Notes: generated from the sequence alone by a model not told the origin. Numbered from the stretch's first letter, positions 15,652 to 28,994 are shown. The stretch is 64,000 nt of DNA from Candidatus Woesearchaeota archaeon (GCA_016192995.1 JACPTB010000002.1:98283-162282); one strand, 5' to 3'. Program-made: numbers and translations.

Positions 15652-16011
15652 TTAGAGAGTAATTACTATTTTATTTTTATTTTCTGGAGTGATAGTTACT
15701 TCTGCCCCTTTAGAAAGATGAGTAAATTCAATAATTTTCTTAGGCAATCGAATATCAAGGGTATTGCCAGCTTGACCTACTTTTGTTCTTGCCTGCAATC
15801 CCCATAAACCCTTTTGTTTAGTTATTTCAGTTATTTTTCTCGATGTTTCTTCACTAAAATAAGTTTCATTGCAATGATCGCAAACAAGAGCTGGAAATGT
15901 TCCAATAGCAACACCGTAGAGGATATAATCTACTTGTTTTTCAACCATCTTATTATCGCATTCCCAGCATTTATTTTTCTCATCATTTTTTTTATTATCC
16001 ATAATCAGCAC
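15652..16011 (-). CDS. zinc-ribbon plus AbrB/SpoVT-like swapped-hairpin domain protein
   Basis: CWECDN...CDHCNE zinc ribbon; C-terminal NTLDIRLPKKIIEF...GAEVTITPENKNKIVI resembles AbrB/MazE fold. Confidence 0.4.
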   Translation of the reverse strand: MLIMDNKKNDEKNKCWECDNKMVEKQVDYILYGVAIGTFPALVCDHCNETYFSEETSRKITEITKQKGLWGLQARTKVGQAGNTLDIRLPKKIIEFTHLSKGAEVTITPENKNKIVITL

Positions 16012-16012
16012 C

Positions 16013-16213
16013 TTATTTATTCAAAAATACTGTTTTAATACGATATATATCAGCTTTTTTTTTATAAGCAACACTAAAATAAGTGTATGATACTAAAAAC
16101 CCATCTGTTTGCCGTGAAACTGAACCTTGTTTGATAGCCAGTTTAATTTGTTCTTCAGTTATTCCCCCAATCTCCATTTTTTCTTGAGCATGAATACTTA
16201 TTTGAAGTTCCAT
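16013..16213 (-). CDS. small hypothetical protein, possible toxin-like partner
   Basis: 66 aa, 1-nt spacing from downstream ORF. Confidence 0.25.
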   Translation of the reverse strand: MELQISIHAQEKMEIGGITEEQIKLAIKQGSVSRQTDGFLVSYTYFSVAYKKKADIYRIKTVFLNK

Positions 16214-16325
16214 TGGTTAACCTATAATTACAAGTAATTACTAGTATATAAAAGTTATTATTTAGATGAGGAATAATAGGAAAAACTTTAAATAGTATTA
16301 CCATAGTATAACTATTGGTGAGAAC

Positions 16326-16520
16326 ATGGAAGCTATACCTACAAAAATAACGCCTCGATTATTACAAGAAATGGATGAAATTATTGATGAAGGATGGTAT
16401 GCAAATCGTTCTGAATTAATTAGAGATGCGATTAGAGAAATAGTAAAAAAGATGAAGGCACAGCGATTAGAATCAGCCATCAAGGAAGATATTAAATGGG
16501 GCTTATATGGAGAAGATTAA
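16326..16520 (+). CDS. ribbon-helix-helix (CopG-like) antitoxin
   Basis: ITPRLLQEMDEIIDEGWYANRSELIRDAIRE matches RHH strand-helix-helix; overlaps next ORF. Confidence 0.55.
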   Translation: MEAIPTKITPRLLQEMDEIIDEGWYANRSELIRDAIREIVKKMKAQRLESAIKEDIKWGLYGED

Positions 16521-17010
16521 ACAAGCAATTCTTGATGCTGGGCCATACATTCATTTACATGAGATTAGTAGATTGAATTTTACTGATTTATTTGAAGAAA
16601 TTTTTATTACATCTGAAATTAAAGAGGAATGTAAAAGAATAGAAGAAGAAATAAATAAATTAAAAAATGTTGCTGAGAAAAATCTGACGACAAACCACAA
16701 AGATTTTGCAAAATATCTTATTGAAGGGTGGGATTTAGATTTAGGAGAAGCAACAGGACTTGCGCTTTGTAAGCAGGAAAAAGTAAAGTTTTTTTTCACC
16801 GATGATTTAGAAGCAAGACATGTTGGCAATAGCTTAGGATTTCAATGCCATGGCACTATCGCAATAATCTTGAGAAGATTAAAAAATAACATGATTGATA
16901 AAAATGAAGCAAAAAAAAGCATAGAGGCACTTTATGAAAAGTCAAGCTTATTCATCACTAGTGATTTGAAAGCGTTAGCTATCAAGGAGATAGATCTATT
17001 CAAGAGATAG
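16507..17010 (+). CDS. PIN-like domain protein (putative VapC toxin)
   Basis: N-terminal ILDAGPYIHL and C-terminal FFTDDLEARH acidic residues at PIN positions; coupled to RHH. Confidence 0.4.
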   Translation: MEKIKQAILDAGPYIHLHEISRLNFTDLFEEIFITSEIKEECKRIEEEINKLKNVAEKNLTTNHKDFAKYLIEGWDLDLGEATGLALCKQEKVKFFFTDDLEARHVGNSLGFQCHGTIAIILRRLKNNMIDKNEAKKSIEALYEKSSLFITSDLKALAIKEIDLFKR

Positions 17011-17098
17011 TTATCACTACATAATAGTTAAAATAAACAAATTTATAAGTAATGGATATATTCTAATATTTTTAGTAGATTAGATAAAAGACAATACT

Positions 17099-17239
17099 AT
17101 GAAACGCCAAATATGCATTACCTTAGATGAAGTAACTCATCACAATATTCAGAAAAGACTTCTTGGAGCTAAATATAGGAGTAAATCCCATTTCATAGAA
17201 TGCGCAGTAGAACAATTTCTCAAAGAGGCAGAAAAATGA
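17099..17239 (+). CDS. small ribbon-helix-helix protein (not in ORF track)
   Basis: 46 aa MKRQICITLDEVTHHNIQKRLLGAKYRSKSHFIECAVEQFLKEAEK; stop TGA overlaps ATG of Fic gene (ATGA). Confidence 0.5.
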   Translation: MKRQICITLDEVTHHNIQKRLLGAKYRSKSHFIECAVEQFLKEAEK

Positions 17240-18393
17240 CCGAACATTCTACCTATGAATTAGTTCCTTCTGGAGATAAAGAAAAATTAGAAGGCTGGCA
17301 AAATTATCTTGCTGATAGAGATAAAGGTGTAGAACATGCACCAAATACTGAGCAGAGATTATTATATATACATAAAGTTCTTACAGGGCATTTAGATGTA
17401 GGAATGCCACCAGCTCCTATTAGAGCTGAACAATTATACGAATTGGTAGTTACTGACAGGCCTGATGGCGAAGAGATACAAGATGCAATTGAACAAGTAT
17501 ATGGTAATGATTGGTGGAATAATGAAGCAAGTTTATTAGCAGTAAGCGAAGCTATAACTAATATTTGTAAAGACAATACTCGAGTAAAATATGAAGAAGA
17601 TTTTAGAGGAAAATTAAGAAGTTTTGGAACAAGAAGTATTAATGGCTCAACAAGTGAACCAGTATATTGGAGTCATAGCTGCGTCTATGGAGAAAATGCT
17701 CGTGAAACATTTGAAAAACGAAGATTCACTACAATAAACAATCCTGCTGTTTATTGCGGACTATCAACTGGACTTGATAAAGTCTATGCTAAAATGTGCG
17801 CAACGTATGATAGATTAAAAGAAGAAGCTCATGATTTAGACCAATTATTATTTGCAGAAGCGTTTTTACAACTAGTTGGAACAAGAATAGTTCATCCAAT
17901 AGCTGACGGTAATGGAAGAGTTTTCGCAACCCATTTAGCGCATACATTATACGAAGCAGGAATTAGAATAGATGATCATGAATCATTCAAAAGATTTTTT
18001 CCAGGATTAACATGTATTACTGATACATTTATTACCGAACATTTCTTGCCTGATTTAGGTTTAGACCTTATTTCTGGTTTGGATAACATAAGAATAAAAA
18101 CAGATCACAGATTTAGGCAGAATTATATGAGAACATTAAGAACAGGAATAGAAAGTATGATTGATGAAAACATACAACCAAATGCTCAATATCTTGATTT
18201 TATGGCAAATAATAGATGGCAGATAAAAAGAGTATTATTGCAATTGGGCTTAATAAAACCAACACCTGGAGATAAAAAAAGACTGAAAATGGAAGAAGAA
18301 ATGTTTTCAGAAATGCCTGAAAAAGAAAAAGAAGGAAAGATTATATTTGTTCCTTATCAAAGTGAAATGGAAAGATTTTCCCCGAGAGACTAA
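17236..18393 (+). CDS. Fic/Doc-family protein (putative AMPylase/toxin)
   Basis: HPIADGNGRVFATH close to Fic motif HPFx[DE]GNGRxxR (second Arg replaced); start set at ATG 17236. Confidence 0.6.
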   Translation: MTEHSTYELVPSGDKEKLEGWQNYLADRDKGVEHAPNTEQRLLYIHKVLTGHLDVGMPPAPIRAEQLYELVVTDRPDGEEIQDAIEQVYGNDWWNNEASLLAVSEAITNICKDNTRVKYEEDFRGKLRSFGTRSINGSTSEPVYWSHSCVYGENARETFEKRRFTTINNPAVYCGLSTGLDKVYAKMCATYDRLKEEAHDLDQLLFAEAFLQLVGTRIVHPIADGNGRVFATHLAHTLYEAGIRIDDHESFKRFFPGLTCITDTFITEHFLPDLGLDLISGLDNIRIKTDHRFRQNYMRTLRTGIESMIDENIQPNAQYLDFMANNRWQIKRVLLQLGLIKPTPGDKKRLKMEEEMFSEMPEKEKEGKIIFVPYQSEMERFSPRD

Positions 18394-18394
18394 A

Positions 18395-19867
18395 ATGACA
18401 ACTAACACCGGCATTGTTCAAAACAGAGAAGTAAATCTAGGCATGATTGTATTTACACCCGGCAGTTCAGGCAACAGAGAGCAATTAGAATATTATGTTA
18501 ATAAGGGATATGACGGAGTACTTATTCAAACAGAAGGTTTTCTCCCTTTCAATACACGATTAGTTGATCCTGTTTATGCTTATTTTGATCAAAAAGGAAT
18601 TCTAAGATACAGGAGTAAACATTTAGAAACAGTAAAAACAGAAGATCAATTAGTTAAACCGGTTGAATACAAACTTGTTCCTCCAATTAAAAGAGCAGAT
18701 TTAGAATTAAAATACTATGAACAAAACGGAAATAGGTCACTTTTAAATGTTGAAGAATTGCAATTTGAATTATCCGGAACAGGAAAAGACAAATATCAAT
18801 TAAAGCCTAGTGAAAATATTACATTAGATGCATTAATACGAGCACAACAAAAAGGATTCCCTATTTTCCTCTTGCAAGAACCATGGAGTTCTTATGAATA
18901 CCAAGCAAGAATAAAACAACTTTCAGCCGAAGGAATAGTTGAGCTGCCTGCAAAAGCAGACAAATATTGGGGAGTGTTCAGAGGATTGCAAACTATCATT
19001 GCCAATGCAAAAGCAAAAACACAAACGCCTGAAGCAAGATATAACAGGATAAAAGCAGAAGCGCAAAGAGTATTTTCTGGAAATGATTATCATGATAAAC
19101 CTCCATTTGTAGAATTAATGATCAGACCTGAATTAAAAGAACTTGCTGATGCCTTGCCAAAAGATTGCGGATCAATCGTCGTAGACTGCGGACATATCGA
19201 TGCACCAAATTTCTTCCCGACATCCGCAGATCAATTAACCTTGGAAGAAGGAGCAATCTTAGTAAAATACCTTAAATTGCAAGGCCACAAAGACGTAAAA
19301 TTAAATATTTTGGTTAACGAAATGTATTTAGCAGAACAACTCGGCGCAAGCGAAGCAAGAAAAGCAATAAGGGGATTAAGAAAAGATGCTAAACGTACTG
19401 GAAGACACTTTTTGATAGACAGAGCATACATGCGATTGCTCGATGGTTATGGTATAACCAAAGACGAAATAGCAACGCAATTTGAAGGTATTTTAGCTTA
19501 TCAATGTCGACAGGATTTAGAAACTCATCAAAAAGGACAATCAAAATTTCAAACACCAATGGTTGAAGACGAAAACGGCGTTTGCAGCGTTGAAACATTT
19601 GATGATGGAATTCAATTTAAAAGAAAACTATATTCACCGGCAAACGCGCCCATGTGTTCAGGAATCTCTGCAAAACTAAACCAAGCTCTTACAGCAAACG
19701 GCGCAGGAACAATTATTTATCTGAGAGATATTAAACACGAGTGCGGCATTAGAAGCGGAGCAATGGCAGGAAGAAATGTGTATGGATTAGATACACCAAT
19801 GCAGGTAGTGTTTTATGCTGAAACAAAACTGAAAAGAGTAGAAGTATTTGATGCGCAGAGATTATAA
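18395..19867 (+). CDS. hypothetical 490-aa protein translationally coupled to Fic gene
   Basis: starts 2 nt after Fic stop; no recognisable motif; composition less K/I-rich than genome average. Confidence 0.4.
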   Translation: MTTNTGIVQNREVNLGMIVFTPGSSGNREQLEYYVNKGYDGVLIQTEGFLPFNTRLVDPVYAYFDQKGILRYRSKHLETVKTEDQLVKPVEYKLVPPIKRADLELKYYEQNGNRSLLNVEELQFELSGTGKDKYQLKPSENITLDALIRAQQKGFPIFLLQEPWSSYEYQARIKQLSAEGIVELPAKADKYWGVFRGLQTIIANAKAKTQTPEARYNRIKAEAQRVFSGNDYHDKPPFVELMIRPELKELADALPKDCGSIVVDCGHIDAPNFFPTSADQLTLEEGAILVKYLKLQGHKDVKLNILVNEMYLAEQLGASEARKAIRGLRKDAKRTGRHFLIDRAYMRLLDGYGITKDEIATQFEGILAYQCRQDLETHQKGQSKFQTPMVEDENGVCSVETFDDGIQFKRKLYSPANAPMCSGISAKLNQALTANGAGTIIYLRDIKHECGIRSGAMAGRNVYGLDTPMQVVFYAETKLKRVEVFDAQRL

Positions 19868-20188
19868 TTGAGTTTGAACAGAAATTTCTTGAGCTGAATG
19901 AAGCACCTTTTTCGAAAGAATAAAGTCTATTTCTAATAATTTTTTAACAAGAACATTATCTTTATTGAGCATGTACAATTCTGCACGACCAATTTTTCTT
20001 GTGTGCTTAACAATGCCTAACTTAACAAGTTCTGACCAAAAATCATGCAAAGTACTCCACGCTATTTCAGCTCCTTTTGCAATATCAGTCAAACTATAGT
20101 CAAATTCTTGATTATCAATAAGAAAATCAATAACTTTAGCAGTAGGTGAATCTCCAAAAATAAGCCTAAAAGATGTTTTTTCTTCCAT
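19862..20188 (-). CDS. winged-helix transcription regulator
   Basis: 108 aa; LTDIAKGAEIAWSTLHDFWSELVKLGIV wHTH pattern. Confidence 0.4.
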   Translation of the reverse strand: MEEKTSFRLIFGDSPTAKVIDFLIDNQEFDYSLTDIAKGAEIAWSTLHDFWSELVKLGIVKHTRKIGRAELYMLNKDNVLVKKLLEIDFILSKKVLHSAQEISVQTQL

Positions 20189-20289
20189 CGTATTATATTA
20201 TAATGGAAGCTTATATATAAAGTTTTTGTAGTTTTAAATTAATATAAAGATACAAAAGAATAAATAGAGAACATGATGTAAAAAGCAAT

Positions 20290-20532
20290 ATGGACTTAAA
20301 ATCAACAATTTTAAGAAAACTTTATCGTAGAAGAATAATAGGAGGTAAACATACTGCTTTTGAGCATGTTATGTCTGGAATTCCTAAACACTTAACTGGA
20401 CAAGCAAAACAAACAACAGAATTCTTAATTAAAGAAGGTTTAATACTTGCAAAACCAACAAATTACGGATTGCAAATAAGTTTGAATCCTGAAAAGATTG
20501 ATGAAATAGAAAAGATAATTGGAAATACTTAA
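20290..20532 (+). CDS. small hypothetical protein
   Basis: 80-aa ORF with upstream TTATATATAAAG box. Confidence 0.3.
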   Translation: MDLKSTILRKLYRRRIIGGKHTAFEHVMSGIPKHLTGQAKQTTEFLIKEGLILAKPTNYGLQISLNPEKIDEIEKIIGNT

Positions 20533-20683: not shown

Positions 20684-21421
20684 TCACAACGTATCCCACA
20701 TAAACTGATACAATTTCTTAAACCCTTCGCTGATATCCTTGCTTTTAATAACAAACACTGTCGGCTCTTCTTTTAGTTTTCCAAACTCTTCACCAGAATA
20801 AATAATAGTATAATCGCCAAAGAATTCCATCGTCATTTTGCTGCAATATTTCTTTGGCAGGAATTTATAGACATTCTTTTTGAATTGCAAGGGATCCTTA
20901 ATATTCTTTTTCATATCTTCATCAAATATATGGCTAAAGGTGATATTTGATTTCTGCCGTTCACGATCAAATTTCATTCTAAAATATTTCAGCCGAGGAT
21001 CAAACCACATGCCCTTTCCGCCAATGCAATAATAAGGCTTTTTCTCCTTCAAAATATCAAACATATAATTCTTATACGCTTCAACACCCCGATAGAAATA
21101 AGCCTCTTCTTGCTGCTTGTTCTGTTCAAACTTTTTGATAAAATGTGGAAGAAAATGCTGCACTTTCTCTTCTTTTTCTTTCAACAATTCCAGCAAACGA
21201 CGTGGATGAATCCCTTTGTAATACTTCTGCCCTTTGACAAATAACTCAGTTGCCAATCCTTTAGCGCAGAGTCTTTCCATAGCATCATACACATTGCTCC
21301 GATTAATTTTCGTTTTAATTGACAGTGTATTAACCGAAGCTTCACCTAAATCAATAAGCACTTCATAGATACGAGCCTCATTGAGACTCAATCCCAATTC
21401 CATCAATACATCTTCATGCAT
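20684..21421 (-). CDS. trmB: TrmB-family transcription regulator
   Basis: N-terminal LGLSLNEARIYEVLIDLGEASVNTLSIKTKINRSNVYDAMERLCAKGL HTH plus TrmB C-domain length; paralog of 42302 gene. Confidence 0.7.
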   Translation of the reverse strand: MHEDVLMELGLSLNEARIYEVLIDLGEASVNTLSIKTKINRSNVYDAMERLCAKGLATELFVKGQKYYKGIHPRRLLELLKEKEEKVQHFLPHFIKKFEQNKQQEEAYFYRGVEAYKNYMFDILKEKKPYYCIGGKGMWFDPRLKYFRMKFDRERQKSNITFSHIFDEDMKKNIKDPLQFKKNVYKFLPKKYCSKMTMEFFGDYTIIYSGEEFGKLKEEPTVFVIKSKDISEGFKKLYQFMWDTL

Positions 21422-21453: not shown

Positions 21454-21473
21454 TTCGTTGTAATAGCAACGAA
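21454..21473. promoter_or_regulatory. 7-6-7 palindrome TTCGTTGTAATAGCAACGAA in divergent trmB / ATPase intergenic region
   Basis: near-identical palindrome TTCGTTGTAAACACAACGAA at 22848. Confidence 0.4.
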
Positions 21474-21532: not shown

Positions 21533-22744
21533 ATGCTGATTATAGAAAGACCCCAAGAGCTTAAAAAGATAACACAAATAAAGAAATGGCTGTTAATTTA
21601 TGGGAGGAGAAAAACAGGGAAAACATATCTCATCTCTACATTTCTCAAGCCAGATGAATATTTTTTTATAAAAAGCAATAAAAATATTTTGACTAAAAAC
21701 AATGAATCCATTTCTTATGAAACATTTATTGAGATAGTAAAACGCAGCCTTGCAAATAACAAAATAGTTGCCGTTGATGAATTTCACCGGTTAGGTACTG
21801 ATTTTTTTGATTTTTTGCATTATACTGAAAAAAAAGGAAAATTAATTCTAATTTCATCTACGCTTTATCTTTCGAAAAAGCTTCTTTCTGAAAAGTCAGC
21901 ATTGCTTGGATTATTCGCAGAAGTAGTTATTGGCCTGATTAGTTTGCAGGACATATTAAAAGCATTGGGAAAATATAATCTTCCAAAAAAAGAGCTGTTT
22001 GAAATTGCAATACTTCTCCGCGAACCGATTGCAATAGATTATTTTGATGAGAGAAAAAAAGCGAGGGAAACAGCAGCAATAATCATCGAGAGTTCTTTAA
22101 GAACAATTCCTGCCTTAATGGGAGAGATTTTTATTGAAGAACAGCGGGAAATTTCAGCAGTTTATGAAGGCATTCTTAGGGGAATAGCAATAGGAAAGAT
22201 AAATTCAGGGGAATTATCAAGCTATTTATTTTCAAAAAGATTATTGATGAAAGATGATCCTAGTATAATACAGCAATATCTTAATAATTTGATGCAATTT
22301 GGGATTATAAAAAGAATAGAATTATTTACCAAGAAGAGATTCGTATATAAACTGACGTCACCGCTGGCAAGAATTTATTATTACAGTGATGAAAAATACA
22401 ATATTTCTGAGAGGAAAATGAATGAAAAGGAACTGCTCGCCATTATAGATGAATTGATGCCAAGAATAGTGGAAGATACCGTCAGGGAAGAGCTTGCTGA
22501 AAAAGAAGGGTTAAGGGAAACAATAGTGGAATCCGCAGATTTCGAAATTGATGGCTGTTTGCTAAAATTTAAAACACCGGAAATAGCATTGGAAGTTAAG
22601 TGGAAAGATAGTACTAAATTAAATATTAATGAGATTAATAATAAATTAAAAGAAATAGACGCAAAAAAAAGAGTGTTATTTGTTTCTGATAAGAAAACAG
22701 TGAAAAACAATGGATTAATAATCATGGATCCAGCAGATTTATAG
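21533..22744 (+). CDS. archaeal ATPase (Arch_ATPase, DUF234 family)
   Basis: Walker A GRRKTGKT, Walker B VAVDEF, C-terminal DUF234-like region. Confidence 0.65.
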   Translation: MLIIERPQELKKITQIKKWLLIYGRRKTGKTYLISTFLKPDEYFFIKSNKNILTKNNESISYETFIEIVKRSLANNKIVAVDEFHRLGTDFFDFLHYTEKKGKLILISSTLYLSKKLLSEKSALLGLFAEVVIGLISLQDILKALGKYNLPKKELFEIAILLREPIAIDYFDERKKARETAAIIIESSLRTIPALMGEIFIEEQREISAVYEGILRGIAIGKINSGELSSYLFSKRLLMKDDPSIIQQYLNNLMQFGIIKRIELFTKKRFVYKLTSPLARIYYYSDEKYNISERKMNEKELLAIIDELMPRIVEDTVREELAEKEGLRETIVESADFEIDGCLLKFKTPEIALEVKWKDSTKLNINEINNKLKEIDAKKRVLFVSDKKTVKNNGLIIMDPADL

Positions 22745-22847
22745 TAATGGTGAATTATTTTCTTACCTATGCTCACAATTATTAATCAGCAAATGCGCCC
22801 ATAAATAAATTAAATGACTTGTTCTTGGTGCTTAGTTTATCTCATAT

Positions 22848-22867
22848 TCGTTGTAAACACAACGAAC
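22848..22867. promoter_or_regulatory. 7-6-7 palindrome TTCGTTGTAAACACAACGAA upstream of asparaginase array
   Basis: second copy of the 21454 palindrome. Confidence 0.4.
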
Positions 22868-22930: not shown

Positions 22931-23476
22931 ATGACTAAAGAAACTATTGACCTATTAATTGTAACCACCGGCGGATCTATTGATGCATATATGAAATGGC
23001 CATCAGCAGAAAGACCTGGCTGGTGTATAGAGATTCTGAATAGAGAAACACAAATTCCAGAAATAGTCAAGCATTTAGGAATAGAAGGAAAAGTAGAGTA
23101 TGTTCCCATTTGCATGAAAAATTCTGACGACATAACTGATGCAGACAGAGATGCAATGTACAAAGCAATAGCAAAAAGTCCTCAAGAGTCTGTTGTTATA
23201 ACACATGGATTAAACACCCTAAAACAAACACAGATTTACTTAGAACGAAAACTTAGAGCTGATAATCCACTTACGTTGCCAAAAACAATTGTTCTTGTTG
23301 GCTCAAAAACACCTGATGTTGCTGGTCATCATGGAGAAGGAATAATTCAAGTAGGCTATGCAATTGCATCTTCTCTTACAGCTCGCCATGGTGTATATCG
23401 GGTTGACAATGGAAGATTACTTGATGTCCAAGGCAGAAAATACGATCATGATCAATTCAGAAATGCAACAGGCTAA
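22931..23476 (+). CDS. asparaginase-family protein, N-terminal domain only
   Basis: VTTGGSID (Thr nucleophile motif), VITHGLNTL, TIVLVGSKTPDV; lacks C-terminal domain. Confidence 0.5.
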   Translation: MTKETIDLLIVTTGGSIDAYMKWPSAERPGWCIEILNRETQIPEIVKHLGIEGKVEYVPICMKNSDDITDADRDAMYKAIAKSPQESVVITHGLNTLKQTQIYLERKLRADNPLTLPKTIVLVGSKTPDVAGHHGEGIIQVGYAIASSLTARHGVYRVDNGRLLDVQGRKYDHDQFRNATG

Positions 23477-23494
23477 AAAGGTTGGAGCATACAA

Positions 23495-23722
23495 ATGACC
23501 AACAATACGATCAAAATCCTCGTCACTGGCGGAACCTTCGACAAGGAATACAACGAATTAACAGGAGAGCTTCACTTTAAAGACACTCATATCGCTGAAG
23601 TCTTAAAGAAAGGAAGATCAGAAGTTGACATCATTATCAGAAACATTATGATGATTGATAGTTTGTATATGAAAGATAATGACAGAAAAAACAAAGCAAC
23701 GGGAAAATTTGAAGAGAGATAA
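23495..23722 (+). CDS. asparaginase-family fragment (75 aa)
   Basis: ILVTGGTFD N-terminal motif then divergent short tail; likely gene remnant. Confidence 0.35.
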   Translation: MTNNTIKILVTGGTFDKEYNELTGELHFKDTHIAEVLKKGRSEVDIIIRNIMMIDSLYMKDNDRKNKATGKFEER

Positions 23723-23734
23723 GAGGAAAGCAAC

Positions 23735-24892
23735 ATGTCAAAGAAACCAGATAAAGCTTATCTTATTGAATGTGATGAAATTTACCGAAGATTTATTGAA
23801 GAAGAAATTCCAGAGCCAAAAATTACTTTAGACTGGACAGGAAAACCAAAAAAGCCGCGAGTATTATTGTTATATACTGGCGGAACATTGGGAATGAAGA
23901 AAAAAGTAAATCAAAAAACTCAAAAAGAAGAATTAGTTCCTGATTTAAGCCTTGAACAATTATGCGCTGCAGCAGATTTTGTTGCAGGAATCAAAAATAG
24001 ATATAATCTTTTAGGATACCATGTTTCACATGTTGATAGCACAGAGATTAATGTAAAAGTATGGAAGACATTAGCAGGTTTAGTTCATAAGCATTATGAA
24101 GAGTTTGATGGTGTAGTAGTCTTGCATGGAACCGATACATTACAATATACCTCAGCAGCTACAGCATTTTCATTAAGAAATTTAGCCATACCTGTGGTGC
24201 ATACTGCTGCGCAAATGATTTTGCAAGCTGATGGTTCAGATGTTCTGATGAATTTAACAGGATCATTAGCTGTTGCAACATCGAAAATAGCTGAATCTTG
24301 CGCTCTTATAACGGGAGAAATATACAAAGGAACAAGACTTGAAAAAGTAGATGATTCCAGAATATTAACTTCATTTGGCTCTCCCATTTATGGAAGCATT
24401 GGCCATTTAGGCAGCCATGGTGTTGTGTTAGATCAACGAGCAGTAGTCAGAGGAACTTATATTCCAAGTGATTTAATTTATGCACCTGAATTTGAAACTA
24501 GTGTTCTTGAAGTGGTGATTACTCCAGGTTTAAGTCCAAGAGTTGTTGACGCTGCAATTGATGAATCAGAATGCAAAGCATTAGTCATGAGATCTTTTGG
24601 ACCAGGAAATATGCCACGATGGTTTATCCCGCTTATTAGAGCAAAAGCAAGTGAAGGATATCCAGTATATGTTTCATCGCAATGCGCAGGAAGCGGAATT
24701 TCTGCAGGTGGAAGCGACTATGCAGTAGGACAAGCTGTTTTAGAAGCAGGCGGAGTTCCGATTGGAGATATGTCTCCGACAGCTACAACGGTAAAGCTGA
24801 TGAAAGTAATGGGATACACAAAGGACAATGCAGCCATTAAAAGAGAAATGGTTGGAAATATATATGCGGATGAAATTACCCATTACAAATAA
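23735..24892 (+). CDS. L-asparaginase-family protein (type I / GatD-like), full length
   Basis: LLLYTGGTLGM, VVLHGTDTL, complete C-terminal domain; 385 aa with ~40-aa N-terminal extension. Confidence 0.65.
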   Translation: MSKKPDKAYLIECDEIYRRFIEEEIPEPKITLDWTGKPKKPRVLLLYTGGTLGMKKKVNQKTQKEELVPDLSLEQLCAAADFVAGIKNRYNLLGYHVSHVDSTEINVKVWKTLAGLVHKHYEEFDGVVVLHGTDTLQYTSAATAFSLRNLAIPVVHTAAQMILQADGSDVLMNLTGSLAVATSKIAESCALITGEIYKGTRLEKVDDSRILTSFGSPIYGSIGHLGSHGVVLDQRAVVRGTYIPSDLIYAPEFETSVLEVVITPGLSPRVVDAAIDESECKALVMRSFGPGNMPRWFIPLIRAKASEGYPVYVSSQCAGSGISAGGSDYAVGQAVLEAGGVPIGDMSPTATTVKLMKVMGYTKDNAAIKREMVGNIYADEITHYK

Positions 24893-24941
24893 AACGAAAA
24901 TATCAAGAAAATTTAAATAGTAATTAATCACAAGATTTTTC

Positions 24942-25969
24942 ATGAAGAAAATGGAAACTACAACAAAAAAACCAAAAATCTGCATTCTTTTCTGTGGCGG
25001 CACAATTGTGATGGCAAAAGATCCAAAAACAGGTTCTTTAGACATGTCAGGCGGCATAAATGAAATTCTCAACTTAGAGCCAAAATTAAAAGAAATTGTG
25101 GAGATGAATGTTGAATTCATCGACAACATAGATAGCACCAATACCAAAGAACACCATTGGGATACTATGGTGAAAAAGATTACAGAAAAATACAATGATT
25201 ATGATGGATTTGTTATCACCCACGGCACTAATACCATGGGTTACACTCAAGCGCTTTATCATTTGCTTTGCAAGGGATAGGAAAACCTGTTGTTTTGACA
25301 GGCGCGCAAATTCCAGCCAATCAATTAGAGAGTGATGCACGAAGAAACTTTGTCAACGCTGTAAAATTGGCAACGATGAACATTGCGCAAGTGATGGTTG
25401 TTTTCGGGAGCAAAGTTATTCTCGGCACCAGAGCAAAAAAAGTTTCAGAATCAGAACTGGAAGCATTCAAAACATTCAACGCTCCGGACTTAGGCGAAAT
25501 CAGATTAAGCATTGAACTAAAACAAGAACACAAAAAACGTCATAATCATCCATTTACACCAAAGCCTGGCTTCAACGCAAATATTATTGTCTTAACTTTA
25601 GAACCAGGCATAAGAACAGAAGATGTCATGAAAATAGTAGAATCAGATATCAAAGGTTTAGTAATCCGAGCATATGGCAGTGGTGATCTACCTTACTCGT
25701 TGCTGCCAGCATTAGAGCGCGCTCATAAAAAAAAGATTCCAATTGTTGTCACAACACAATGTCCTATTGGCGTGACGAGAATTGGATTAAATGACGTTGG
25801 ATTAAAAGCATTGCAAACTGGCATTACGCAGGCATTTGATATGTCAATGGAATCAATGACGACAAAATTAAAATGGCTTCTTGATAAAAATACACCGTAT
25901 GAACGGATTAAGGAAATAATGGAAACAAACTTGGCAGGAGAATTAGTTCCGCCGATAAAAGATAGTTAG
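24942..25969 (+). pseudogene. asparaginase-family gene split by a frameshift near 25247-25252
   Basis: ORF 24942-25280 has ILFCGGTIVM and VITHGTNTMGYTQAL; +2 frame continues SALSFALQGIGKPVVLTGAQIP (TTG-initiated ORF 25268-25969); one-nt indel restores a canonical asparaginase. Confidence 0.55.
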
Positions 25970-26875: not shown

Positions 26876-27274
26876 TTAACAAATGTTTAAACCAGGAATT
26901 TGATTAAAATGCTTAATATTGTTTGTTTTCAAAGTACATTTATGCTCAAATGCAAGTGCACCAATAAATAGATCTTTAGTATCAATAACTGTTCCTTTCT
27001 TTTTAAGAAACGATGAGAAATCACTAACAATTTCAACTGATAAAGCTGAAAAGTTCAAGATAGTAATATTTTTTTCAAGAATTTTAATTTTTTCTAAGTT
27101 TTCTTGTTGTTTTGCAGATATTTTTGCTCCATGATAAAGCTCAAAAAGATTAACAATAGTGGTACAAAGATTATGATGCCTATTGGAGTCTATATAATCT
27201 ACTGCATAAAACTTATTTCTCAAAAAATCCACTAGCACATCAGTATCTAAGCAAATGTTTTCCATTTTTTCCAT
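26876..27274 (-). CDS. vapC: PIN-domain toxin VapC
   Basis: N-terminal CLDTDVLVDFLR classic PIN motif. Confidence 0.7.
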   Translation of the reverse strand: MEKMENICLDTDVLVDFLRNKFYAVDYIDSNRHHNLCTTIVNLFELYHGAKISAKQQENLEKIKILEKNITILNFSALSVEIVSDFSSFLKKKGTVIDTKDLFIGALAFEHKCTLKTNNIKHFNQIPGLNIC

Positions 27275-27501
27275 CCCTTTCTTAAACTATTTTTCATTTC
27301 CTTCACTTCCTTATCAGTCATTTTCCAACTTCCTGCTAAATTCATGATATTTTGAGAAGTTGGTCTTTCCTTCAATGTTTTGAGTGCTGAATCTATAGAT
27401 ACTGAATGACCTGTTTCTTTTTGTAATTTCCCTGCCATAGATACCAGCCAGGTATAATTTTCTTCACTTATTTTAATTGTCTTCATCCCCATAATTACCA
27501 C
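27247..27501 (-). CDS. vapB: VapB-type antitoxin
   Basis: TIKISEENYTWLVSMAGKL ... LAGSWKMTDKEVKEM typical archaeal VapB; overlaps vapC; 9-bp inverted repeat TTACCACCT/AGGTGGTAA spans its start. Confidence 0.55.
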   Translation of the reverse strand: MVIMGMKTIKISEENYTWLVSMAGKLQKETGHSVSIDSALKTLKERPTSQNIMNLAGSWKMTDKEVKEMKNSLRKGWKKWKTFA

Positions 27502-27782: not shown

Positions 27783-28994
27783 TTAAGATATAATTACATT
27801 ATTAATATCTTCAATATCTTTAAACTGTTTCACAAGAATCTTTTTAGAAAATGAGGACTTTTCAAAGAATTCTAACTCTTTTTCTTCAATCTTCTTTTTA
27901 TATTTTACTTCTATGGCAATTGTTTTCTTTTTAATTAGTATGATAAAATCAATCTCTTTATTGTTTTCAAAATAATAGTATAGAGGATACTGTTTAATCT
28001 TAAGATATACTAAATTTTCAACTAAGCTTCCTTTATCTTTAAATCCAACAAAAGCATTTCGTATACCTACATCTGCAATGTACAATTTTTTGGGAGAATG
28101 AATTTTTTCATTAAGAGATTTTGCATACCTATCAATTGAATAAAACAAAAAAGTATCTTTAAAATATTCAAGAAATCTCCGTATGGTATCAACACTTACT
28201 GAAAGCACTCTCGCAAGCTTAGACAGGGTTATTGTTTTGCCAGCTCGTTCACAAAGTAATTGAAACATTTTCTCAACAATATCTTTTTCTTTAATATTAT
28301 GATAGGCAATAATATCTTTATAGAGTATTTGTTCGATAGTATTTTTTAAACAGTTTACATCTTGAGTAAGCACATATTCTGGCATACCTCCTATTTTGAG
28401 ATATTCTTCAAAGTAGCTTTCAAGTAAATACTGTTCTGATGGTAGTATATTGATATTTTTAAATTGAAGAAATTCAGTAAAATCTAACGGAAGAACTTCA
28501 ATGATTAATGACCTGCCAACAAGATAATTATTTTTTGATTTAAGCAATGATGCTGATGATGAAGATGCAAAAAATTTAATATTTTCAAGATCATAAAAGT
28601 TTTTTAATTCCTGCTCAAAAGATGATGATTGTGTTACTTCATCTAAAAAAACATAAATGGGTGTTTCCAAACCAATACTATGCATTTTTCTATATTCTTC
28701 AACCAATTGGTGTATTGTTTTATCTTTAAAAGAAATAAAATCCATAGTCAGATAGAAAATTCTCTTAGGTTCTGTTGTCGAAAGCAAATAGTGGATAAGC
28801 TGCTTTAATAAGGTTGTTTTTCCTACTCTTCGCAGACCTGAGAGAAATACTATTTGTTTTGTTTGAAGCTCTTGTTTCATCAAACTAAGGTATTTTTCCC
28901 TTGTAAGACCTGCAGAAAACTCCTTTTTCTCCCACCAAGGATTCATTAATGAAAATATCTGTTGTAAATCATCCATAAGCATATTAAACCACAT
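27783..28994 (-). CDS. AAA ATPase, COG1373/DUF4143 family
   Basis: Walker A GLRRVGKTTLL, Walker B VFLDEV, C-terminal DUF4143-like. Confidence 0.65.
   Translation of the reverse strand: MWFNMLMDDLQQIFSLMNPWWEKKEFSAGLTREKYLSLMKQELQTKQIVFLSGLRRVGKTTLLKQLIHYLLSTTEPKRIFYLTMDFISFKDKTIHQLVEEYRKMHSIGLETPIYVFLDEVTQSSSFEQELKNFYDLENIKFFASSSSASLLKSKNNYLVGRSLIIEVLPLDFTEFLQFKNINILPSEQYLLESYFEEYLKIGGMPEYVLTQDVNCLKNTIEQILYKDIIAYHNIKEKDIVEKMFQLLCERAGKTITLSKLARVLSVSVDTIRRFLEYFKDTFLFYSIDRYAKSLNEKIHSPKKLYIADVGIRNAFVGFKDKGSLVENLVYLKIKQYPLYYYFENNKEIDFIILIKKKTIAIEVKYKKKIEEKELEFFEKSSFSKKILVKQFKDIEDINNVIIS

Follow-up and report, generated by a model that had tools for sequence, protein, structure and literature searches.

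A 64,000-nucleotide (nt) stretch of DNA from Candidatus Woesearchaeota archaeon (GCA_016192995.1, JACPTB010000002.1:98283-162282), referred to as the window, carries between positions 15652 and 20532 (counted from its first letter) a gene for a minimal ribbon-helix-helix (RHH) protein, a gene for a Fic-like protein and a gene for a 490-amino-acid (aa) protein, named X here, which follow one another almost without a break. The question raised by this locus is whether the three genes form a dedicated toxin-antitoxin (TA) or effector system, with the RHH protein as antitoxin, the Fic-like protein as toxin and X as target or partner, as suggested in the original prediction, or whether they were brought together in another way. 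On balance, our computational analysis favours the explanation that this is a conserved archaeal operon, composed of a repressor and an undescribed synthetase-like enzyme, into which this lineage inserted the Fic-like gene. The main object of interest is X together with its cassette, the key fold being predicted at medium confidence. The comparison covered approximately 11 X-bearing lineages: the window, L001, L002, L003 (the same contig as L012), the L004 group, L010, L013 (with the near-identical L016), L017 (with the near-identical L018), L019, L020 and L021.

All open reading frames (ORFs) were recovered at the positions first assigned to them. The TGA of the 46-aa RHH gene (17099-17239, plus strand) overlaps the ATG at 17236 of the 385-aa Fic-like gene (17236-18393, plus strand) in the ATGA configuration, and the TAA of the latter (18391-18393) is separated by 1 nt from the ATG of X at 18395, so that the tight spacing proposed for this junction stands while its length is corrected from 2 nt to 1 nt. 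The X ORF extends over 18395-19867 on the plus strand, and its start is backed by the N-terminus MTTNTGIV, which is conserved in homologues. The window is AT-rich (G+C approximately 34%), and a calculation in which stops make up approximately 7% of random codons at 33% G+C indicated that chance does not account for ORFs as long as 385 and 490 codons.

The gene order RHH-Fic-X was not found in the other lineages compared. The Fic-like gene was present in the window and in L001 only, and X was thus linked to a Fic-like gene in 2 of approximately 11 lineages. The L001 locus contains the Fic-like gene and X side by side, with a gap of 12 nt and no RHH gene, and its Fic-like and X proteins are 64% and 75% identical, respectively, to those of the window. 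In contrast, RHH orthologues (58-68% identical) are located upstream of X in L002, L013/L016, L017/L018 and L019, none of which has a Fic gene. The RHH gene is directly coupled to X in L013/L016 and L017/L018, with no gene between them, whereas an M23 peptidase gene, joined to the RHH gene by the same ATGA overlap, intervenes in L002 and a gene for a 242-aa protein intervenes in L019. Three other kinds of gene directly precede X at loci lacking the RHH gene: the L004 group has one for a membrane protein of 351 aa, L003 has a true GatD gene (equivalog score 485 bits), and L020/L021 have one for a YbaK-like protein whose tRNA_edit match (Pfam, 26.9 bits) just exceeds the cut-off of 25.5. Each of these upstream genes has the same orientation as X, and in nearly every case it overlaps X or lies within 20 nt of it; the encoded proteins are mutually unrelated, except those of L010 and L019. 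Two identities considered for them were discarded: that of the 351-aa L004 protein as a diverged Fic protein (BLASTP E >2) and that of the 242-aa L019 protein as a TraB/GumN-type protein, a by-eye suggestion that had no Pfam or PDB support.

What precedes X in several lineages is a promoter region together with the RHH gene. A motif search identified a conserved promoter/operator motif of the RHH-led operon, TTTATAAGTAATGGATAT, at 17042-17059 (plus strand), comprising a TATA box and a conserved downstream block; it is the single match in the window, even with 2 mismatches permitted. The common block TTTATAWRTRATGGATRT occurs upstream of every RHH orthologue (L002, L013, L016, L017, L018 and L019), exactly once per locus. 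The RHH protein, whose orthologues upstream of X make it a conserved leader gene product, matches Pfam RHH_1 weakly (E 0.054), and the family members are 45-53 aa long, show a strand-helix-helix pattern and have no neutralising tail. As judged from these sequences, the RHH protein is probably the minimal repressor of the operon, and TGATGGATAT-like DNA within nt 17030-17098 may be a candidate operator for putative autoregulation.

The 385-aa protein carries the motif HPIADGNGRVFA at residues 220-231 (nt 17893-17928), as originally described. His220, Asp224 and the Gly225-Asn-Gly-Arg228 segment, which constitute the core of HxFx(D/E)GNGRxxR, are present and identical in the orthologue P0007 of L001. 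The motif deviates from the canonical one in having Ile (Leu in L001) instead of Phe at position 3 and, in both orthologues, Ala instead of the final Arg; the two motifs are identical save for this Ile-to-Leu exchange. The relaxed motif H...[DE][GA]N[GK]R had a single occurrence among all six-frame ORFs of the window and arose in only 16 of 200,000 shuffles of the 385-aa protein (8e-5), indicating that a Fic-type motif without the second Arg is both conserved and non-random, as had been proposed. An NCBI entry identical to the 385-aa protein is annotated as a hypothetical protein from a Candidatus Woesearchaeota archaeon. P0007, encoded on the 2.9-kb contig L001, was the only homologue among 5.8 billion proteins, and a search with a two-sequence profile at E up to 10 recovered no homologue beyond it. 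The window protein had no Pfam match, and P0007 matched the Pfam Fic family PF02661 over the motif region at 16.2 bits (E 0.019), below the 24-bit gathering score. The second-best PDB match of the two-sequence profile was the Fic domain of AnkX, motif aligned on motif (E 0.63, non-significant), and PADLOC PDC-S04 matched both orthologues at the same segment (E 0.002 and 0.001). Nothing significant was obtained for the protein in the Pfam, NCBIfam, PHROGs and PDB sequence searches, or by tblastn against plasmids. An AlphaFold2 (AF2) model computed from the two-sequence alignment was unusable, with a mean predicted local distance difference test score (pLDDT) of 38, and the Fic assignment accordingly rests on the motif and the weak profile matches. 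We conclude that the 385-aa protein is probably a Fic-fold protein with a non-canonical motif, rather than a demonstrated member of the family.

A word-indexed search yielded five relatives of X, and a profile compared exhaustively with 1.84 billion representatives retrieved 23 clusters, nearly all of 370-415 aa; none of the relatives of X is annotated. The original prediction had considered that X might turn out to be a common housekeeping enzyme unlinked to Fic elsewhere; it is indeed unlinked to Fic in most lineages, but it is rare and lineage-specific. The absence of a recognisable domain held for the Pfam, NCBIfam, PADLOC, PHROGs and PDB sequence searches, in which X gave no significant match alone or as 5- or 19-sequence profiles, but did not hold in profile-profile and structural comparisons, which point to an asparaginase C-terminal-like domain and a predicted aminoacyl-tRNA synthetase (aaRS)-like domain. 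The N-terminal domain (18395-18949, plus strand) resembled the C-terminal domains of the neighbouring asparaginase paralogues in a profile-profile comparison (probability 91.8%, E 7e-7), whereas three control comparisons were non-significant. X has no N-terminal catalytic asparaginase domain (Thr nucleophile; TGGT, HGTDT), and such catalytic domains are encoded separately near X, for example at 22931-23476 in the window and at 3436-3930 in L017. The X protein of the window has an insertion of approximately 90 aa in the asparaginase-C-like domain (nt 18548-18820), modelled at low confidence, which is absent from the L001 orthologue and from all other family members.

The C-terminal domain (18950-19867, plus strand) is a predicted class I aaRS-like Rossmann core. 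The AF2 model of X, computed from a five-sequence alignment, had a predicted template-modelling score of 0.68 and a core pLDDT of 70-90. For the C-terminal domain, a Foldseek search placed arginyl-tRNA synthetase (ArgRS) chains first (E 1.3e-3, probability 1.00), with whole-chain TM-scores of only approximately 0.3, and two methods independently gave the top rank, by a margin, to ArgRS of several species. The strand order of the model is β1-αA-β2-helices-β3, followed by a disordered insert and β4-α-β5, which we take to be the class I aaRS topology, and a Rossmann-type catalytic fold of this class is present in the predicted model. Invariant residues are located at the strand ends: D264-C-G-H-I-D269 after strand 1 (nt 19184-19201), N308 after strand 2, and E364, Q373, A418-P-x-C421 and Y442-L-R. 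On this model, X is predicted to be a two-domain enzyme in which an orphan asparaginase-C-like domain is fused to an ArgRS-like Rossmann core. Our literature search found no description of such a protein or cassette.

Downstream of X, conservation extends to a second group of genes. A gene for a 245-aa TrmB-like regulator (20684-21421, minus strand; Pfam TrmB, E 3.5e-12) is convergent with X and is its downstream neighbour in all nine lineages whose contig reaches that far. The two genes are adjacent in L002, L003, L004, L013, L017, L020 and L021, and L010 has a different gene, for a 281-aa protein, between them. Identity across lineages is 65-84% for the TrmB-like protein, compared with only 31-53% for X. 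The TrmB-like protein, whose best NCBIfam match, a weak one, is the chromatin-associated TrmBL2, may act as a global regulator under constraint or belong to the nucleoid. Asparaginase-family paralogues are found near X in eight of nine lineages, and N-domain-only asparaginases in the window, L002, L013, L017, the L004 group and L010. In the window, Pfam, NCBIfam and tblastn synteny delimited an asparaginase/GatD-family cluster at 22931-25969 (plus strand), consisting of a short N-domain-only gene (181 aa, 22931-23476), a remnant with an internal deletion, a gene of full length (385 aa) and a copy with a frameshift; all of these paralogues score under the NCBIfam cut-offs for GatD or asparaginase.

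The nature of the trio was judged against these comparisons. A dedicated three-gene system is suggested by the ATGA overlap and the 1-nt gap, by the adjacency of the Fic-like gene and X in a second contig, and by the leading position of the RHH gene, an arrangement seen in many type II systems. It is contradicted by four lineages without Fic, in which the RHH gene and its promoter precede X. L001 has the Fic-like gene and X with no RHH gene, which likewise speaks against the RHH protein as the antitoxin of Fic, and a protein of 45-53 aa leaves no room for a toxin-neutralising segment. In addition, no conserved instance of the inhibitory (S/T)xxxE(G/N) helix was found in the Fic chain or the RHH protein: the sole match, SMIDEN at residue 307 of the Fic-like protein, reads ELIKDN in the orthologue and is thus not conserved, and SHFIEC of the RHH protein deviates at its final residue and is conserved to the same degree in most loci that have no Fic. 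We regard the dedicated system as unlikely. Somewhat more plausible, although still doubtful, is that the Fic-like protein was acquired secondarily as a regulator, which modifies X, or a partner that handles aminoacyl-tRNA, by AMPylation or a related transfer, the other upstream genes being accessory modulators. Tight coupling in two diverged lineages (gaps of 1 and 12 nt), the uniform orientation and spacing of the upstream genes, and the occurrence at the same position of GatD and a YbaK-like editing protein, both related to the predicted aaRS-like function, are consistent with this. The M23 peptidase, the membrane protein and the 242-aa protein, by contrast, have no evident link to an aaRS, two lineages have no intervening gene, and the interaction is putative. 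A further explanation, that the 385-aa protein is not a functional Fic enzyme, either because it is a pseudo-Fic or because it is an unrelated helical protein that contains the motif by chance, would account for the missing second Arg, the replacement of Phe by Ile/Leu, the lack of a Pfam match of its own, the 16 bits of the orthologue and the failure of the model. The rarity of the motif among shuffles, its conservation in the orthologue with His, Asp and GNGR all kept, and the alignment of three independent profile libraries on the same segment argue against this; moreover, active Fic enzymes without the second Arg exist, and the AnkX motif was seen in the profile alignment. We consider this explanation improbable.

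The reading of X was weighed in the same manner. Its C-terminal domain might be another Rossmann-like nucleotide-binding enzyme or a non-catalytic scaffold, the likeness to ArgRS being an artefact of modelling or ranking; we give this only a minor share of our confidence, because two methods agreed on ArgRS, the strand order is, in our reading, that of class I aaRS, and GatD and the YbaK-like protein occur as neighbours. The last point supports the aaRS-like fold independently, since both of these upstream gene products act on aminoacyl-tRNA. Several observations nevertheless weigh against the operon with a synthetase-like enzyme as we picture it. The fold is derived from a single medium-confidence model of five sequences with a mean pLDDT of 67; no sequence-profile link was found between the C-terminal domain and any aaRS, hhalign of the X profile against Escherichia coli ArgRS gave a non-significant match of 19 residues only, and the similarity of X to this ArgRS was marginal (24 of 2000 shuffles). 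X lacks HIGH, the HVGH position reading ADQL in a manual alignment to the E. coli enzyme, and it lacks KMSKS and an anticodon-binding domain, since it ends approximately 14 residues past the fifth strand and has no conserved Lys-rich loop; ATP-dependent chemistry of the modelled enzyme is thus unproven. The Fic fold could not be modelled, the retention of tight linkage between the Fic-like gene and X in two lineages, in L001 even without the RHH gene, could mean a real functional link, and X and the asparaginase genes lie in separate transcription units, so that their linkage could be inherited synteny only. One broader proposal is that the RHH-variable gene-X cassette is an undescribed modular system of DPANN archaea, in which X and the short asparaginase N-domain proteins would form a new amidotransferase/ligase acting on an amino acid or aminoacyl-tRNA, with the upstream genes tuning or exploiting its activity. 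We hold this tentatively, as a lesser possibility; short N-domain-only asparaginases, such as that of Rhodospirillum rubrum, are reported to be active alone, which weakens the need for the C-like domain of X.

In the conserved-operon explanation that we favour, the unit shared by Woesearchaeota and related DPANN archaea comprises the promoter TTTATAAGTAATGGATAT, the minimal RHH gene and X, with the convergent TrmB-like regulator and the asparaginase/GatD paralogues downstream. The position between the RHH gene and X accepts different genes in different lineages and is filled here by a probable Fic-fold gene whose motif, as in AnkX, has no second Arg. Transcription of this gene would start at the RHH promoter and its translation would be coupled to that of X; it would be a lineage-specific addition rather than the toxin of an RHH antitoxin. 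Gene order, synteny, promoter conservation and domain similarities were observed directly, and all activities are our inference. The Fic-like protein would most likely modify a target protein by transferring to it a group that contains a nucleotide or phosphate. X would bind a nucleotide and an amino-acid-like or aminoacyl substrate in a pocket formed by DCGHID, N308 and Cys421, and would take part, with the asparaginase-family proteins encoded nearby, in the amide metabolism of amino acids or aminoacyl-tRNA. We propose that X is a nucleotide-dependent enzyme, a ligase or transferase, whose substrate would be an amino acid or an aminoacyl compound; that HIGH and KMSKS have been lost is a genuine caveat.

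The remainder of the region consists of genes outside this operon. Three tightly packed modules had been described within it, and this packing was confirmed, the first two modules resembling type II TA pairs by their family matches. The first pair, on the minus strand, consists of a 119-aa candidate antitoxin (15652-16011) with a YgiT/MqsA-type zinc finger fused to an AbrB/MazE-like domain (NCBIfam TIGR03831, YgiT zinc finger, 24.1 bits, exceeding the cut-off; weak Pfam matches to MazE_antitoxin, E 0.006, and DUF7479, E 4e-4) and a 66-aa DUF4258-like candidate toxin partner (16013-16213; Pfam E 6.5e-4, under the gathering score), whose gene precedes that of the zinc-finger protein with a gap of 1 nt. 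The second, on the plus strand, consists of a 64-aa RHH_8 family candidate antitoxin (16326-16520; Pfam PF17723, 30 bits, exceeding the cut-off) and a 167-aa PIN-like candidate toxin (16507-17010) of the DUF3368/PADLOC PDC-S70 family (PDC-S70, E 3.8e-17 over the full length; Pfam DUF3368, E 2.2e-4), whose genes share a 14-nt overlap. In both modules, a small DNA-binding protein adjoins or overlaps a small protein of a toxin family, and on sequence grounds the two pairs in 15652-17010 are credible, if ordinary, small type II TA-like modules. The region 15652-20532 is thus a patchwork of two ordinary TA-like pairs beside a conserved chromosomal operon. A repeat search found no island-bounding repeats around it, and a search of the window found no tRNA genes or Rfam families. 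Acquisition of the Fic-like and X genes, which had been suggested from a K/I-poor composition, was not borne out: their K+I fractions (0.118 and 0.140) are within the range of the window (mean 0.187, sd 0.048), the shift is common to the neighbouring asparaginase genes, and the G+C contents (0.333 and 0.363) are close to the mean (0.337). A further PIN/antitoxin-like pair is located at 26876-27501 and a second AAA ATPase gene at 27783-28994, both downstream of the asparaginase cluster, and small accessory modules are therefore scattered along the stretch beyond 15.6-20.5 kb.

Three insertions are specific to the window: the Fic-like gene, a pair of genes between X and TrmB, and an AAA_14 ATPase gene between TrmB and the asparaginase genes. 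The pair encodes a 108-aa winged helix-turn-helix protein (19862-20188, minus strand; PADLOC PDC-M05A, E 6e-8), the stop codon of which overlaps that of X (TTATAA), and a divergent 80-aa protein (20290-20532, plus strand) with no significant family match. In several lineages the divergent TrmB/asparaginase intergenic region contains the palindrome TTCGTTGT-N4-ACAACGAA (window, 21454-21473 and 22847-22866; L002, 3535-3554; L003, 11930-11949; L021, 9936-9955), and the two window copies flank the AAA_14 ATPase gene (21533-22744). From its sequence and placement, the palindrome looks like an operator of the TrmB-like regulator that was duplicated upon insertion of the ATPase gene. Within the asparaginase cluster, the remnant of a second short asparaginase (23495-23722) is 61% identical over 62 aa to a 161-aa protein of L013 and lacks the half that carries HGTDT. 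The type I asparaginase gene at 24942-25969 is split by a frameshift near 25253-25256 into ORFs of 112 and 233 aa, and ALSFALQGIGKPVVLTGAQ continues the split gene in another frame, as in a pseudogene or an assembly error. Proteins of 376-453 aa without a Pfam match are encoded among the asparaginase paralogues downstream of TrmB in L004 (8934-10295), L017 (2316-3446) and L021 (7511-8746). In L013 (4298-7552 and 12129-13256), inspection by eye placed the RHH-X-TrmB-asparaginase cluster amid ArgB/LysZ-like, ArgD/LysJ-like (Nudix-fused), class II glutamine amidotransferase-like and ArgC/LysY-like genes; these surroundings may be relevant to the ArgRS-like fold or coincidental.

The genomes of DPANN archaea are very small and encode few biosynthetic pathways, yet the X-bearing lineages retain several asparaginase/GatD paralogues beside X; X may be relevant to the way in which these symbionts synthesise or recover Asn, Gln or the corresponding tRNA esters. 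Paralogues of aaRS have repeatedly been found to be new ligases, as in the cases of AsnA, MshC, GluQRS and the cyclodipeptide synthases, and the fusion of an ArgRS-like core to an asparaginase domain, if true, would be a new architecture among them. For the Fic field, the locus provides a Fic-like protein of a kind rare in archaea, which has a motif of the AnkX type and whose genetic partner is defined, and it shows that a small RHH gene overlapping a Fic gene is insufficient to call a TA pair.

Comparison with known systems places each component of the locus. Among Fic/Doc proteins with non-canonical motifs, the closest likeness is to the phosphocholine transferase AnkX, with which the Fic-like protein shares the pattern HP[FIL]xD[GA]NGRxF followed by a non-Arg residue; the two-orthologue profile aligns on the AnkX motif HPFRDANGRTFV, the catalytic His, Asp and GNGR are kept, and the position of the second Arg is Val in AnkX and Ala in both orthologues. 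The match differs in being non-significant at the database level, and the Fic-like protein has no ankyrin repeats, other AnkX domains or inhibitory helix motif; the family has two known members, whose Fic fold is a prediction from motif and profiles. As in the class I Fic TA pairs VbhT/VbhA and FicT/FicA and in Phd-Doc, a Fic-type gene is preceded by a small gene that runs into its start, but here the upstream gene is the RHH gene of the X operon, found elsewhere without Fic, and its product has neither the (S/T)xxxE(G/N) motif nor a neutralising extension. The RHH protein resembles the minimal CopG/Arc/MetJ-type repressors, being a 45-53-aa strand-helix-helix protein encoded by the first gene of an operon behind a conserved promoter block, and differs from them in its E value of only 0.054 to Pfam RHH_1 and in its putative operator and DNA binding. 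X, like the truncated class I aaRS paralogues MshC, YadB/GluQRS and the cyclodipeptide synthases, lacks an anticodon-binding domain, whereas its closest predicted fold is ArgRS, not CysRS, GluRS or TyrRS, and it differs further in the absence of HIGH/KMSKS, in its fusion to an asparaginase-C-like domain and in having no detected sequence similarity to them. Its N-terminal domain is homologous to the C-terminal domain of GatD, the archaeal Glu-tRNA(Gln) amidotransferase component, and of type I L-asparaginases, from which X is distinguished by the absence of the catalytic N-terminal asparaginase domain and of the GatD_N domain.

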